The notes beneath the pieces were generated by a model, which saw only the letters and a program-made list of their open reading frames with translations, did no database searches and was not told the origin of the DNA. The position numbers and the translations under genes were made by a program. A stretch of 64,000 nt of DNA from positions 1,760,001 to 1,824,000 of the forward strand of contig OZ241329.1 of NCBI GenBank assembly GCA_965199825.1, read 5' to 3'. Shown piece after piece: positions 54,652-62,306 of the stretch (position 1 is the first letter of the stretch; each line of letters begins with the position of its first letter). Source of the stretch: Bdellovibrionales bacterium. Lineage in GTDB: Bacteria > Bdellovibrionota > Bdellovibrionia > Bdellovibrionales > UBA1609.

Positions 54652-56277
54652 TTGAAAATCAAAGATCAAATACTTAAAAATTCTAAAGGACAATCGTTAA
54701 TCCAAGTAGTGATCGCTCTGGGTATGGTTGGAATGCTGACGCTGGTGTTGCTATCGGTGCAGCAGATTATTAATAAGCAACAGTATCAGAGTTCTTTGAA
54801 TTTTCAGGTAGATACAAACTTGAGAATGATTCAGTCCCTGATTAACAATCCCACCGCCTGGGGTTTTACGATTGCAGCGAACTCAGGTTTGGCTTGTGCT
54901 GCTAATCCTTCGACATGTCGCCAAGGTGATACCGCAAATGTTTTTATAGTAAAAGACTCCATTCTTCCTAGTGGAAATGTTTATTACGATTGGACTGGCC
55001 CCAAGGGACTAGACAAATCAGGCACTCCCTGCACGGGATTTGTGAATTCTCCGATTCCAGGTGTGACTGGCAATGGAAATTCGCAATGCCCGCTTCAATT
55101 TCAAATCCAGTGGACCGCAGACTGTTCACTGCCGCCCGGAACTCTTTGCGGAATAAGTCCAATGACATCAAAAATTGTGATCAACACTGTCTACAACCCT
55201 GGGCCTGATACCGTCGCAATCCCGTTTAATACCAAAGCAAAGATACTGCCGTTTACGCAAGGAACATCGGGAGGACCCGCTTGCTCTTGGCAAACTAATT
55301 CTTTGGGCCTTGTCGAAAATTGTGGAAATGTGGGTGTTGGAACAACTTCCCCCCAAGCGAATCTTGATGTCATGGGCACTACTTTGTTAAGGAAAGTAGG
55401 GATTGGTACGACTTCCCCCCAAGCGGACCTTGATGTCGTGGGCACCACAATTTTAAGAACGGCTACGGGAACTTTAGGTTTTGCGAGCGGGAAAGTCCTT
55501 CGATTTTACGCAAATTCAGGCCTTCCTCTGATGAGTTACAGTATCGAATCTACTGGCGCTGGGCTCGGTATGAATGTCGTGCATCGTAATGATATGAAAA
55601 CCACTCCAACAAGTGACAGTTGGATGATGAACTTTCGTTTGAATGGGAGTCCTAGTAGTTCAATTCCCGGTGATTGGCCTCAATACGCATTCGGTTCGCC
55701 AAACAACAGGATCGAATTTTTTGGTGGAATTAATAATGATAAGCATGACAGCATTAACATTGCGGCTGGTGGGATTTATTTTCAGGAGAAATGTATTGCG
55801 GGAGATCCAACTTCTTCAGCATGTCCCCATTCGATATTCGCGCCATATCCAATACCCTCGGACGAAAGGCTTAAAGACCACATAAGACCATTTGTGAAAG
55901 GCCTGGAGGCTCTCAACAAAATTAAGACTAAACTTTTTAGATTTAATGGCCTTGGTGGTAGTGTGAACGATGACAAAGACAAAATCGGTGTGATTGCTCA
56001 GGAACTCGAAAAGCTTCTTCCCGAACTGGTGTTCGAAGAAGGTGAAAAATTTCATAAAGAAGACAAAGAACTCACGATGATCAAAAAAGTAAACTACACC
56101 GGATTAACTTTCGTCACCATCAACGCTATCCAAGATCTCTACAAAAAACTCTTTGGCGACAGTGGAGTGATTCAACAACTCAAAGATGAAAACAAAGCCC
56201 TGACCGCACAGGTCACAGAGTTAAAATCAATGTTCTGTGCGGAACATCCTCGATCTGCGGCTTGCAAGAAAAAATAA
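54652..56277 (+). CDS. Pilin-like N-terminus fused to tail-fibre shaft and S74 intramolecular chaperone (fibre B)
   Basis: KG|QSLIQVVIALGMVGMLTLVLL; VG(V/I)GTTSP x2; SDERLKDHI; GVIAQELEK.LPELV; coiled coil; paralogue of fibre A. Confidence 0.85.
   Translation: MKIKDQILKNSKGQSLIQVVIALGMVGMLTLVLLSVQQIINKQQYQSSLNFQVDTNLRMIQSLINNPTAWGFTIAANSGLACAANPSTCRQGDTANVFIVKDSILPSGNVYYDWTGPKGLDKSGTPCTGFVNSPIPGVTGNGNSQCPLQFQIQWTADCSLPPGTLCGISPMTSKIVINTVYNPGPDTVAIPFNTKAKILPFTQGTSGGPACSWQTNSLGLVENCGNVGVGTTSPQANLDVMGTTLLRKVGIGTTSPQADLDVVGTTILRTATGTLGFASGKVLRFYANSGLPLMSYSIESTGAGLGMNVVHRNDMKTTPTSDSWMMNFRLNGSPSSSIPGDWPQYAFGSPNNRIEFFGGINNDKHDSINIAAGGIYFQEKCIAGDPTSSACPHSIFAPYPIPSDERLKDHIRPFVKGLEALNKIKTKLFRFNGLGGSVNDDKDKIGVIAQELEKLLPELVFEEGEKFHKEDKELTMIKKVNYTGLTFVTINAIQDLYKKLFGDSGVIQQLKDENKALTAQVTELKSMFCAEHPRSAACKKK
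55330..55458 (+). repeat. In-frame 66-bp-period imperfect tandem duplication in fibre B
   Basis: Copies start at 55330 and 55396, sharing ACTTCCCCCCAAGCG.A.CTTGATGTC.TGGGCAC. Confidence 0.85.
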
Positions 56278-57457: not shown

Positions 57458-58237
57458 TTGGCGATCGCAATTTTTTGTTTATTTGTTCTCAATGCCTTTA
57501 GTGATTCAATTGATGATGTCACATGCCGCAATAAGCTTTTGCGCCCCCTTCCAATATCGCAAGGTGCTGCGGGATTAATTCATAAACGTCTCAAACTTAT
57601 AAAACCTGGGGACTATGTTCACTTTCAAACTCGACGTGGGCGAAACGATAGAGTCGAGGCGAAATATTTGGGTTCAGATCGTGAGAAGATAGAATTAACC
57701 GGCCAAGGAATCTATTATGAAATCGCTTGGTCAGATATTGTTCCGTATTCCATCAAAATGATCAAAAATTTTAAGTATGATCCAAAGTCGAAGGCGATTG
57801 CTCGTTTTTGTGATGGGGATCACTCACAGATTGCCTTTGTCGAGCGTGAGCCACATTCCGATCGATTAGTTTCACACACCTGTGTCACACTCGATTTTGT
57901 TCCATTTTTTGATAAGCAGTGGCATGTGTGGTTCAAAGATCAGGGCGATCCAACCACGATTCCAACCAAAAATATTCTTTTAAGTTCTTTGCTTTCGGTT
58001 GAGCACAATCGCACCAACTCGCTGTTTACTTTGCAACATGACTTGCTGGACGCAGCTTCTCAAAAAAAAATGGTGTTGCTTGCGATACCTGAAGAAAACG
58101 AATTTTATGTCGAAGTGATTCGGCCATTGGCAGTGACCCCCGATTTTTTAATTTTCCAGCAGGAGGACGGCACTCCGGGCACTTACACCTATGACGATCT
58201 TGCCCATGCCAACTATGCTATTTTTGAGGCGTTATAA
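57458..58237 (+). CDS. Secreted hypothetical protein
   Basis: GGAGG RBS, TTG start, signal peptide followed by TCRNKLL. Confidence 0.6.
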   Translation: MAIAIFCLFVLNAFSDSIDDVTCRNKLLRPLPISQGAAGLIHKRLKLIKPGDYVHFQTRRGRNDRVEAKYLGSDREKIELTGQGIYYEIAWSDIVPYSIKMIKNFKYDPKSKAIARFCDGDHSQIAFVEREPHSDRLVSHTCVTLDFVPFFDKQWHVWFKDQGDPTTIPTKNILLSSLLSVEHNRTNSLFTLQHDLLDAASQKKMVLLAIPEENEFYVEVIRPLAVTPDFLIFQQEDGTPGTYTYDDLAHANYAIFEAL

Positions 58238-58240
58238 GTT

Positions 58241-58684
58241 TTAACGATCCGCTTTTTTTAAAAAATCGAAATCACGACTCATCAGTGTCTTTCGCCCGGC
58301 GGCTCGAGCATTGTCCATGGCGCGGTCGCAAAGGATGCGGAGTTGGTCAGATAAAACTCCCATCACCTCGGCCGACGTATTCATGTCCGAGCGGGCTTGA
58401 ACATAATCTTTCATGCGCGAGGCAATCACCAAAACTTCCGAAGCTTCCTGAGCTTGGGGCGCACTTTGAATAATTCTTTTTTGGGGAGAACTTGATGTGG
58501 GCGCAAACATTTCGATCGCTGCGGCGTTGGTGTGCCTCGCGCCTGGAACATGTCGCTCAAAGCAGGGCACACTACAAAAAACATAACCCGTCCGGAGGCT
58601 GTTGCAGGTCGAAACACTGCAAGCATAGTATTGAGCGCTGAAGCCAATCGGAGTTTTACAAGAGCTACATTTTTTCCATTCCAT
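58241..58684 (-). CDS. Zinc-finger plus bacterial histone-fold protein (ZZ-type histone)
   Basis: N-term CxxC..C....C..C...C...H..H; C-term EVLVIASRMKDYV...MNTSAEV...A.DNARAAGRKTLMSRD, closely resembling Bdellovibrio histone Bd0055. Confidence 0.85.
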   Translation of the reverse strand: MEWKKCSSCKTPIGFSAQYYACSVSTCNSLRTGYVFCSVPCFERHVPGARHTNAAAIEMFAPTSSSPQKRIIQSAPQAQEASEVLVIASRMKDYVQARSDMNTSAEVMGVLSDQLRILCDRAMDNARAAGRKTLMSRDFDFLKKADR

Positions 58685-58906: not shown

Positions 58907-58983
<77 letters not shown>

Positions 58984-59084: not shown

Positions 59085-60839
59085 ATGAAAAACATTTTGT
59101 TTCTGCTCCTGCTTTGCTTCTCACCCTTTTCCAACGCACAAATTTTACTTCAACACTCAGACGTTTGGTTTTTAATCGTTCCGGCTCATCATAACCGAAT
59201 TTTGGTATATCGAAATCAAAACCAAAAGGTAGATCAATTAAAAATTGTCGATCAGTCTGGAGGATTATGGTCAAACGACCATTCTACCGATTTGACCTTT
59301 GAAGGCGACGATCGTTTAGTCATCAAGGATTTTGGGACCACCGTGACGGCAACCTATATGACCGAAACTAAAGCACCGATAAAATTAAATCAGGTTGCAT
59401 TAAATTCCGAGCGCCTTGATCAGTTAGGATTCGATTCGTTTTTAAAACTAGAAACTCAATCTCAAACAGAATCACAAGGTTCAGTCGCGAGCTCTGATCC
59501 GAACACCCATTTTTCGATTTTTGAGCTGCGACCTTCTCGATATTCAGATGCGGATATTCAGCTTGAGCACCGTTTAAGCAACATTGGCTTTAAAGCCCAT
59601 CATTTTCTAGGACCTCTTTCGCTCAGAGGGGATCGCTATCCCTTGTTTATGTTCGTATCAGAAGATGAAGAAAATCGGATCCGGCAAGAGTTGGGTGAAA
59701 GTGTTTTGGTGCATCGGCTTGATTTGACATCCCAAGCGACAACTCTAACTTTTGAAAAGTCATTTTGGGATTTTACACAATTGGATTCGTCATTGAGAGA
59801 AAGATTAAAAAGTCTGAGCTCAATAGTTCATAATCTAAATGCAGTTCGATCTTTAAATTTTAAAGATAAAAATCTCTTATTTTTATCAGTCAAAGAATTT
59901 CTTTACGACCTAGATCGACTCAATATTTTAATCTCAAAAAAACCAATTGGCGCGGATCAAAAAAACCGATGGCGTAAGTCATTTACAAAGCTTGCACAAG
60001 ATGCCTTTAAGATTTTGGATGGCCTTGATATCAATAAGGCCGATCGCTTTGTTTTAGATCATCCAGAACTGGTTAATGGAGCAGGCTTTGAGCTGTTCTT
60101 TAAAGATTTGGATTCCAAAAGCCTCTCGCTTTTTTCAAAATGGATTTTACAACAGAGCGCAAATTTAAAATGCATCGAGCGCGATCGACTCTTGCCCGAT
60201 TTTAAAGTTTTCATGCAAAACTCCGGGGCACCACTAGGAGATTTGACATCAGTAGTAAAGTCGAATCAGAGCTGGAGTATGCAGCCCGCAGTTGTATTTG
60301 GTGTTGGTCTTGATCGAGATCGAGAAATCAAAGAAGTGATTGAGTTCGTACTCTTAGCTGACAAATCGGCTGTGGAGTTTTCGGCTTGGTTCAAGAGGCA
60401 TAGTCCTTTGGTTGATGCCCGCACCGTTCACGGCGATGTCGTGCGCTTTTTGATTGAGTTGGCAAAGCCTGATCAAAATTTGCTCAATACCGCCGAGGGT
60501 TTTAATATTGAGAATTATGTGATTCATATAATGGAGATTTATTATCAACTGCTCGAAACCTCGCGGGTTTCGATGAAGCACCCTGAGGTGTACCGCGCCC
60601 TGTTGTTGGGAATTCAAGAAATCACCAAATTGGCAGAAAAATTGATCGCACAAGACAAAGTCGGCTCGCCGCTTTTCTTTCGAACATTTTCGAAGCTCCA
60701 AAGCGAATTTGGCCAAAAACTTTTTAAAAGCATTCTCGATTTTCAGATCACCAACCAGGCGGATCGCGACGTCTGCCTAGGTCTCCTCCATCCTGAACCC
60801 CTCCATTTTCGATTAGGAAACCTCTCGCTAAAAAATTAA
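59085..60839 (+). CDS. Large secreted hypothetical protein
   Basis: GGAG RBS, signal peptide ending SNA; no family recognised; DVCLGLL near the C-terminus. Confidence 0.65.
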   Translation: MKNILFLLLLCFSPFSNAQILLQHSDVWFLIVPAHHNRILVYRNQNQKVDQLKIVDQSGGLWSNDHSTDLTFEGDDRLVIKDFGTTVTATYMTETKAPIKLNQVALNSERLDQLGFDSFLKLETQSQTESQGSVASSDPNTHFSIFELRPSRYSDADIQLEHRLSNIGFKAHHFLGPLSLRGDRYPLFMFVSEDEENRIRQELGESVLVHRLDLTSQATTLTFEKSFWDFTQLDSSLRERLKSLSSIVHNLNAVRSLNFKDKNLLFLSVKEFLYDLDRLNILISKKPIGADQKNRWRKSFTKLAQDAFKILDGLDINKADRFVLDHPELVNGAGFELFFKDLDSKSLSLFSKWILQQSANLKCIERDRLLPDFKVFMQNSGAPLGDLTSVVKSNQSWSMQPAVVFGVGLDRDREIKEVIEFVLLADKSAVEFSAWFKRHSPLVDARTVHGDVVRFLIELAKPDQNLLNTAEGFNIENYVIHIMEIYYQLLETSRVSMKHPEVYRALLLGIQEITKLAEKLIAQDKVGSPLFFRTFSKLQSEFGQKLFKSILDFQITNQADRDVCLGLLHPEPLHFRLGNLSLKN

Positions 60840-61526: not shown

Positions 61527-62306
61527 TTGGTTTTAATAATCTCTTTACTGATAGCGATCACTTTTGCTGAACCTGGTCCGGCCTGTCATTTTAAGGCGGG
61601 AACAAATAAAATTCCGGTCATATTTTTTGGTGGCTACGGCTCAACGCCTAGAGATGTCAATGAATGGGCACATTCTGCTCAAAGCACCTCTCATTATGAA
61701 AGGTTTTATTTTGAGGGAAACTCATTACACAAATCTGGTTTATCGAAAGCTTCGGTTCTCAATGCCTCAGCTCAAGATATCGATAATTGTGTGAAGATGA
61801 TCAATTCGAATCAGTTTAAAGGCCCAATTGTGATCGTCGGGCACTCTCATGGCTCCCTGGTAATTAATAAAATTGTTGAAAAAACAAATCCCCAAAATCG
61901 ATCGAAAATTCAATTGGTCAACCTCGATGGATATAAATCAACAGGTCCAATTTTTAAAAATGTGAAGGTTCAGTGTTGGACCTCGTATTCACCAAGTAGT
62001 CAGCCCAATCCTCCAGAGTCCTGTGCAGATATTTTACCAAAAGCGAAGTCACGCGGAACAGATTCGATGAAACAGTGCTCTGGTACCTGCCATGTGATGA
62101 GAAGTCCAACCTGCGGGAGTAATGTTTGGTGTCGTCATTTTGCGTTGGTCAATCGGGGAGCATCTCCAAATTTAGGCGATGCCAATTTGAACAAAGCCTA
62201 CGCCAATGTCGACCCGCCGCTTGATTTTTTAAATCCCATTCTTGAAACTGCGCCCAATATTCAATTGGCCGAGCCGCTCGGTCAAAAATCCGACTCAGTC
62301 CTCTAA
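61527..62306 (+). CDS. Secreted Cys-rich alpha/beta hydrolase-like protein
   Basis: Signal peptide; VIFFGG oxyanion region; IVGHSHG nucleophile elbow; 8 Cys. Confidence 0.6.
   Translation: MVLIISLLIAITFAEPGPACHFKAGTNKIPVIFFGGYGSTPRDVNEWAHSAQSTSHYERFYFEGNSLHKSGLSKASVLNASAQDIDNCVKMINSNQFKGPIVIVGHSHGSLVINKIVEKTNPQNRSKIQLVNLDGYKSTGPIFKNVKVQCWTSYSPSSQPNPPESCADILPKAKSRGTDSMKQCSGTCHVMRSPTCGSNVWCRHFALVNRGASPNLGDANLNKAYANVDPPLDFLNPILETAPNIQLAEPLGQKSDSVL

Follow-up and report, generated by a model that had tools for sequence, protein, structure and literature searches.

ZZ histones, a subfamily of the alpha3 histones named by computation, are defined by an N-terminal ZZ-type zinc finger with one C4 and one C2H2 site and by a C-terminal fold like that of the 'bacterial dimer' histones (Schwab et al. 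2024, PMC11390915). One such protein is encoded in the stretch of DNA analysed here (the window), 64,000 nucleotides of a Bdellovibrionales bacterium (GenBank assembly GCA_965199825.1, contig OZ241329.1, positions 1,760,001 to 1,824,000). Its gene lies at 58241..58684 on the minus strand, and sequence comparison supports a product sequentially composed of an eight-ligand finger, a linker, and a fold resembling the bacterial histone HBb. The protein probably acts as an accessory packaging protein, with a predicted handshake homodimer that would bind and bend DNA independently of sequence, like HBb. The family is already described, and the finding is no surprise to specialists.

Structures have been determined for HBb/Bd0055 (8cmp, 8fvx, 9ezz, and 9f0e). 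The HBb residues with the most DNA contacts are N22, R57, S9, T53, T8, S24, K10, K12, K52, and K16; R51 and D58 form an RD clamp, and L31, I35, L38, V11, and I59 belong to the interface (Hu et al. 2024, PMC11317129). The ZZ histone of Bdellovibrio bacteriovorus HD100 is poorly expressed, and a second histone is present in just 50% of those proteomes with a ZZ histone (PMC11390915). Of the Bdellovibrionota genomes, 37% encode Bd3044, a longer and less conserved second histone (Hocher et al. 2023, PMC10627809). Taken together, the statements of the two papers suggest that Bd3044 is the ZZ histone of HD100. The works found on ZZ and bacterial histones are the Schwab paper and preprint, the HBb papers, a paper on Leptospira HLp, a review, and a 2025 preprint.

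Domain organization of the ZZ histone

The listed open reading frame (ORF) starts with ATG and comprises 147 codons followed by a stop at 58241-58243. Only three more codons are open upstream of the ATG at 58684 (open frame of 150 amino acids), so this ATG is taken as the start. At E ≤ 0.001, the product matches 582 of 636 candidate proteins in the 90% clusters (71% identity for the best match other than itself) and, in the 50% library, 602 representative clusters, 310 of which reach 1e-10 or better. Judged by these matches, the ORF is a genuine gene and no chance ORF. Many Bdellovibrio-type proteins share 59-71% identity over 96-98% of the length. Proteins of the B. bacteriovorus cluster are 59-61% identical, and one cluster that includes a B. 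bacteriovorus protein annotated as 'hypothetical' is 59% identical over 97% of the length.

An initial annotation, made from the letters of the window, had placed a zinc-finger-fused histone of the recognised ZZ class at this ORF. The coordinates and the quoted C-terminal wording are as it described. The domain order and the C4 and C2H2 sites also match the published class (PMC11390915), as do the linker, the C-terminal fold with RKTxxxD, and the Bdellovibrio-type lineage. The protein differs from the family in being short (147 residues with a 19-residue linker) and in carrying a subgroup-specific C-terminal extension.

The HBb-like histone fold spans residues 82-139 (58268..58441, minus strand) and consists of helix alpha1 (88-98), helix alpha2 (104-128), loop 2 with the RKT motif, and the start of alpha3; the modelled helices cover 88-98, 104-128, and 136-144. 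These residues align to HBb/Bd0055 with E values of 3.2e-11 (8cmp_A) and 4.2e-11 (8fvx_A), and a profile built from 32 homologues aligns to HBb at 2.4e-17. Archaeal HTkC (9f2c, 5.5e-4), Leptospira HLp (9qt0, 3.1e-3), and archaeal HMfB (1a7w, 1.5) share the histone fold, but their sequence matches are weaker. In contrast to these histones, of which HLp is arranged face to face, the query gives no sign of a tetramer or hypernucleosome in the models, which covered only the dimer. The RKT....D signature corresponds to G130-R131-K132-T133...R137-D138, and the columns of R131, K132, T133, R137, and D138 are 93-99% conserved in 190 ZZ-type folds. The three-helix histone with this signature, as read by the initial annotation in the C-terminal part, is confirmed by these alignments.

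Helix alpha3 is longer than in HBb. Residues 140-147 (DFLKKADR; 58244..58267, minus strand) form a C-terminal extension of this helix. In an alignment of 32 ZZ-histone homologues, hand-picked out of 120 listed, F141 and L142 never vary, and K143 is conserved in at least 90%. The genes of ten out of 14 translated relatives end shortly past RDF(K), and three more end past RDFE or RDF. Since most relatives end near RDF, the FLKK extension is specific to a subgroup.

The DNA-contact residues of HBb were mapped onto the query with the offset of 80 given by the sequence alignment. Eight of the ten are kept, as N102, R137, S89, T133, S104, K92, K132, and R90, the last in place of K10. The RD clamp is kept as R131-D138. 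Six of the kept contact residues occupy columns with 92-99% conservation across the family, and S89, R90, K92, T133, and R137 are invariant in the alignment of 32 homologues.

The zinc finger occupies residues 1-62 (58499..58684, minus strand). This N-terminal part contains exactly six cysteines and two histidines, which form the ligand pairs C6/C9, C22/C27, C37/C41, and H45/H51. With the pairing taken from PMC11390915, C6, C9, C37, and C41 constitute the C4 site and C22, C27, H45, and H51 the C2H2 site. The third pair is spaced C-x3-C in every aligned sequence, whereas PMC11390915 gives positions 41 and 43. All eight ligands are invariant in 32/32 sequences of the hand-picked alignment, as are W3, K10, R31, T32, Y34, F36, and P47. 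They are likewise invariant, together with K10, V24, and F36, in 33/33 finger regions of a second alignment (the query, 14 regions taken from ZZ histones, and 18 encoded by finger-only genes, at 40-67% identity to the query).

The full-length AlphaFold2 model has a mean predicted local distance difference test score (pLDDT) of 79.8 and a predicted template modelling score (pTM) of 0.45. The finger is modelled as four strands (2-5, 12-14, 18-22, and 56-60) and a helix (39-48) at pLDDT 80-96. A model of residues 1-80 alone (pLDDT 82.4, pTM 0.62) leaves the secondary structure unchanged. The best structural matches of the finger are eukaryotic ZZ domains (p62/SQSTM1, ZZZ3, HERC2, Ada2, Rsc8, and Nbr1), which are likewise built of three short strands and a helix and are cross-braced by two zinc sites within about 50-60 residues. 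The query finger differs from them in its basic surface and in having no match to them at the sequence level.

Two structural searches bear on this assignment. Foldseek, a check that the initial annotation had suggested, returns HBb (E about 0.09) and the ZZ domains of p62, HERC2, KCMF1, PRT1, BIG, and Mind bomb as its best rows for the full-length model. The p62 ZZ domain (5yph) is matched with a probability of 0.97 and a template modelling (TM) score of 0.65, and a second look with VIA-align gives Z scores of 3.2-4.6. An unbiased search compared the finger-only model with 48,161 chains. The sole chain at Z ≥ 5 is 6tda_L, residues 257-307 (Z 5.0, root mean square deviation 2.7, 49 aligned residues), followed by 7dd9_A (4.8), 9ynv_M (4.5), a ribosomal zinc protein (4.5), and the ZZZ3 ZZ domain 2fc7 (4.5). 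Further rows include a CYLD region (4.4), the ZZZ3 ZZ domain 6e86 (4.3), and NosL (4.3), and lower ones p62 ZZ 5yp8_A (4.2), 6cw3_E (4.1), BIG ZZ (4.0), and HERC2 ZZ (3.9). The regions of 6tda_L, 7dd9_A, 9ynv_M, and 6cw3_E are presumably ZZ domains of Rsc8, Nbr1, and Ada2, and chains taken as ZZ domains make up most of the top 16 rows. The modelled finger is ZZ-like in fold; ZZ domains head both searches with scores that are weak in absolute terms.

The 'FCSxxC...H' wording of the finger resembles that of HIT or MYND fingers. Such a finger is the less likely assignment, as the fold searches rank ZZ domains ahead of it, but HIT stays a weak candidate, with 2n94 listed at Z 3.7.

The 60-residue finger core carries a net charge of +4 in the query and of +4 to +8 in all 33 finger regions; of 228 fetched proteins, 226 have a positive core (median +5). 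With this charge, nucleic acid or another acidic ligand would be a better fit than a basic tail.

The low-complexity linker (residues 63-81; 58442..58498, minus strand) connects the two domains. Its 19 residues are rich in Ser, Ala, and Pro and adopt no secondary structure in either model (block pLDDT 61-82). Both the Cys6/His2 cluster and the flexible linker of the initial annotation are therefore retained. The linkers of 185 finger-plus-fold proteins vary from 27 to 117 residues (median 47) and are rich in Ala, Ser, Pro, and Thr. The query linker contains the motif K69-R70-I71-I72 (58469..58480, minus strand), which follows a family pattern of basic-x-hydrophobic-hydrophobic. The pattern [RK]x[ILV][IVLMF] is present in 125/185 linkers, compared with 11.9 +/- 3.3 (maximum 21) over 300 shuffles, and a stricter form with a double basic residue in 82/185, compared with 3.8 (maximum 11) over 200 shuffles. 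Many of the remaining linkers have variants such as ARVFA or QRII, and the column of residue 69 is Arg in at least 90% of the hand-picked homologues. The word 'linker' does not occur in the searchable supplementary text of Schwab et al. (PMC11390915). A comparable basic-hydrophobic stretch, for example KVIRRR, is found at the C-terminus of four longer finger-only proteins.

Pairing of the histone fold

Residues 78-147 are predicted to form a self-dimer with an interaction prediction score from aligned errors (ipSAE) of 0.80, compared with 0.00 for the best control. Agreement among the three dimer runs reaches at least 94% of contacts, with a partner pLDDT of at least 85. The ipSAE mark is reached by 20/30 solved one-chain pairs and 1/23 solved single chains, a calibration that is rough, as the own alignment was used. 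The predicted interface spans residues 83-142 and is composed of the alpha2 crossing (115-115 and 118-111), contacts between loops L1 and L2 (103-134 and 102-133), and an alpha1-alpha1 contact (87-87). The histone fold is thus predicted to form a handshake homodimer. The initial annotation had regarded a model lacking such a dimer as speaking against a histone; the model contains one.

The source genome, which is 100% complete, additionally encodes a bare histone. Its 64-residue HBb/Bd0055-like ORF lies outside the window at G000:C1:1011470-1011649 (= L002:1501-1695), and the major histone expected by the initial annotation is accordingly present. The 64-residue histone is 44% identical to the fold of the ZZ histone, and its alpha1 starts at about residue 3, leaving almost no tail. 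Its gene is arranged tail to tail with ligA, the gene for NAD-dependent DNA ligase, in 4/4 loci tested with Pfam (L002, L018, L020, and L021).

The ZZ histone dimer would bind and bend DNA without sequence preference, as HBb does. By correspondence with HBb, the DNA contacts would lie at the start of alpha1 and at the paired L1-L2 loops and would involve S89, R90, K92, N102, T103, S104, K132, T133, and R137. Two basic fingers, on tethers of roughly 20 residues with the basic-hydrophobic motif, would constitute extra heads that bind nucleic acid or an acidic partner, and in this way a dimer of low abundance could recruit a factor or contact a second segment of DNA. With such heads, the ZZ histone would be an accessory to the abundant 64-residue histone and no replacement for it. 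In line with an accessory status, the finger is matched in 15/40 same-order genomes compared with some histone match in 38/41 (source genome included). The low expression in HD100 (PMC11390915) and the presence of Bd3044 in 37% of Bdellovibrionota genomes (PMC10627809) point in the same direction.

Several observations count against this assignment and role. At the DNA-contact surface, two HBb contacts are lost, with A88 replacing T8 and Q96 replacing K16, and the net charge of the fold core is only +1, compared with +3 for the 64-residue histone. The DNA affinity of the fold alone may accordingly be lower. The dimer may also owe its score to memory or likeness, HBb dimers being among the solved structures. 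For the finger, DNA binding is a proposal, and Foldseek against the PDB gives no match at E ≤ 0.001 for the full-length model. The best Z score of the unbiased search is only 5.0, with ribosomal zinc ribbons, LIM, B-box, and HIT finger folds within about 1 Z of the ZZ rows. The linker motif forms no strand and reaches no high confidence in either model (pLDDT 61-82) that would indicate docking. Neither domain has a significant match in Pfam, where C1_2 at E 2.2 is the only row and no ZZ (PF00569) appears at E ≤ 10, or in NCBIfam, where archaea_histone reaches 13.3 bits (cut-off 50). The protein is outside these curated models, although its homology to HBb is clear by direct comparison. In addition, no experiment on any ZZ histone protein was found in the literature searched. 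According to a review (PMC11318664), deleting both Bd0055 and Bd3044 is lethal, which would not suit a purely accessory role; the accessible text of PMC10627809 describes deletion attempts only for bd0055.

A tentative alternative is that the fold pairs mainly with the abundant 64-residue histone, giving mixed dimers with one finger each that mark a subset of bulk chromatin. Both histone genes are present in the source genome, and the two folds share the identity given above. The HBb interface residues L31, I35, L38, V11, and I59 are matched by L111, L115, L118, M91, and F139, and as these replacements are conservative, a heterodimer is sterically plausible. Both bd0055 and bd3044 peak late in growth, according to the 2025 preprint, and a bare histone is likewise present in 12 of the 14 same-order genomes that encode a full ZZ histone. 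This co-occurrence says little, however, because the bare histone is nearly universal in the order, whereas the ZZ histone is patchily spread. In two genomes, G003 and G036 (both 99% complete), an HBb-like query finds no histone fold besides that of the ZZ histone, which must then be its own partner there. The figure of 50% for proteomes with a second histone (PMC11390915) also argues against an obligate partner. The heterodimer with the major histone proposed by the initial annotation thus remains plausible in its geometry but is not required.

Double-histone relatives provide a further view of pairing. Nine proteins contain one finger and two histone folds (P0122, P0123, P0127, P0128, P0129, P0134, P0136, P0142, and P0154), and P0149 and P0158 look like the same form by eye. 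Three double histones lack the finger (P0188, P0215, and P0232). By sequence, a finger followed by two tandem folds is a built-in pseudodimer. These relatives indicate that one finger per histone pair is viable, as a mixed dimer would have it. By mean identity, the first fold of the finger-bearing doubles is nearer to the ZZ type in 9/9 and the second fold in 7/9, with one tie and one nearer to HBb. No passage on 'doublet' or 'double histone' forms occurs in the main text of Schwab et al. (PMC11390915). A search for larger fusions found no finger-bearing protein of 259-2000 residues, which is weak evidence.

A quickly built tree of 105 folds unites the five HBb-like folds in a single clade, with a support of 99 in the Shimodaira-Hasegawa-like approximate likelihood ratio test (SH-aLRT). 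All 18 folds of finger-bearing doublets and all four folds of two finger-less doublets fall outside this clade, in a tree whose careful search is unfinished and which leaves 64 of 101 inner branches unresolved. The tree left out all rows without a finger by pattern and the ZZ singlets P0003-P0120 except P0016, P0035, P0053, and P0091; P0002 was kept. The placement of the doublet folds argues against mixed pairing. Together, the tree and the genomes in which the ZZ histone stands alone favour self-pairing of ZZ-type folds; mixed dimers may still form in the source genome.

Possible roles of the finger

The finger is not confined to single ZZ histones. Of the 15 same-order relatives in which it is matched, 14 have an in-frame histone fold, and one, G034, has the finger only. 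Its ORF (L017:1495-1704) stops 13 residues after the finger, and a bare histone is encoded elsewhere in the genome; this gene codes for a ZZ histone that was truncated or else for a stand-alone finger. In a sample of the phylum, the finger is present in 158/301 genomes (142/258 of good quality), with a frequency per family that ranges from 0/9 to 33/34. By hand count, about 43 of about 150 listed finger matches lie in open frames shorter than 135 residues. Eighteen such places were read (L022-L039, in 18 genomes): 17 are complete finger-only genes of 65-119 residues, and one runs off the contig end. Within about 3 kb of these genes, a pattern search of the 18 loci detected no ORF with a histone fold. 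The finger is, as far as sequence can tell, an independent module.

Sixteen odd-looking matches, 11 of them aligned over the finger only (one stretch), were scanned with Pfam, and 11 were read; no real second domain emerged, and most look like frameshifted or chimeric metagenome calls. The ESM Atlas gives only small Myxococcota proteins (0.87), to be taken as a lead only. At nine finger-only loci of one family, the ORF sizes point to a block that comprises prepilin peptidase, epimerase, the finger gene, H+-pyrophosphatase, and MotA/ExbB, and in three of the nine the block is confirmed by Pfam. This housekeeping block gives no functional clue.

It is conceivable, though unlikely, that the finger is an autonomous head of predatory and gliding bacteria that binds nucleic acid or an acidic partner. 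The dimer would then bridge DNA or form loops, and the linker motif would serve as a third contact or a regulatory docking site. If so, one and the same head would be used alone, on single histone folds, and on double ones.

Cysteine-zinc clusters can act as redox switches, and the histone fold could be a mere dimerisation scaffold for a zinc-finger regulator, either a zinc or redox switch or a site-specific factor. The stand-alone occurrence of the finger in many genomes of the phylum (the short frames and 17 complete genes above) would suit such a regulator, which nevertheless seems quite improbable. The retention of eight of ten HBb DNA contacts and of the RKT/RD signature argues for DNA binding kept by the fold, and there is no conserved gene partner or operon that points to a pathway. 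The low expression in HD100 (PMC11390915) fits a regulator as well as an accessory histone.

The best-fitting chains include peptide-bound ZZ domains, namely p62 with an N-degron, HERC2 with H3 and SUMO1 tails, and ZZZ3 with H3. A finger that reads protein N-termini or histone-like tails in the manner of the ZZ domains of p62, ZZZ3, HERC2, and p300, and so docks on another chromatin protein, is nonetheless very unlikely: tail-reading ZZ domains use an acidic pocket, whereas the finger core is basic in 33/33 regions, and the 64-residue histone offers almost no tail to read. The residues of the eukaryotic pocket are not conserved in ZZ histones, for which tail binding was judged unlikely (PMC11390915). 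Of the 'reader-like' zinc domain in the initial annotation, the ZZ-like fold is supported and the reading function is not.

Four observations, the basic finger, the linker motif, the occurrence of the finger alone and on doubles, and the genomes with a ZZ histone as the sole histone fold found, agree with the preferred accessory homodimer, in which the finger would be a second binding head on a self-sufficient dimer. The same four speak rather against the reading of histone tails and against obligate partnering with the major histone. Bacterial histones have been recognised only recently, and the ZZ class is the one with an added domain. The window contains a short, clean copy with a 19-residue linker, in a complete genome that also has a bare histone, and this copy is well suited to a study of what the finger contributes.

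Locus and neighbouring genes

The ZZ histone gene is convergent with a 259-residue ORF without a family. A tRNA-Arg(TCT) gene (58907-58983) lies on the same minus strand, and the ZZ histone gene is 222 bases downstream of it. A weak terminator-like hairpin (58871-58852) follows the tRNA. The tRNA is not a conserved neighbour, as none of 15 related loci has one. Genes for an alpha/beta hydrolase, for two proteins that lack a family, and for GTP cyclohydrolase I surround it in the window, and no functional link to the ZZ histone was found among them. Nor is there a conserved gene partner or operon, as 14 related ZZ-histone loci have differing neighbours.

The G+C content of the bin that contains the gene is 0.49, the highest nearby and not anomalous. 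Three runs of poly-A RNA under the same species label yield 0 matching reads, which is no test of expression.

At two loci from relatives of one genus (L009:1498-2399 and L010:1501-2402), the end of a cytidylyltransferase-like gene (Pfam CTP_transf_like) and the ZZ histone gene share 4 bases. The two genes are probably co-transcribed there, unlike in the window.

Elsewhere in the window, at 54652-56277 on the plus strand, a 541-residue protein contains a Peptidase_S74 'chaperone of endosialidase' domain (residues 403-460, E 1e-12). Three ORFs without a Pfam family lie near it (57458-58237, 59085-60839, and 61527-62306). The Peptidase_S74 chaperone is self-cleaving and typical of tail-fibre or spike-like proteins.

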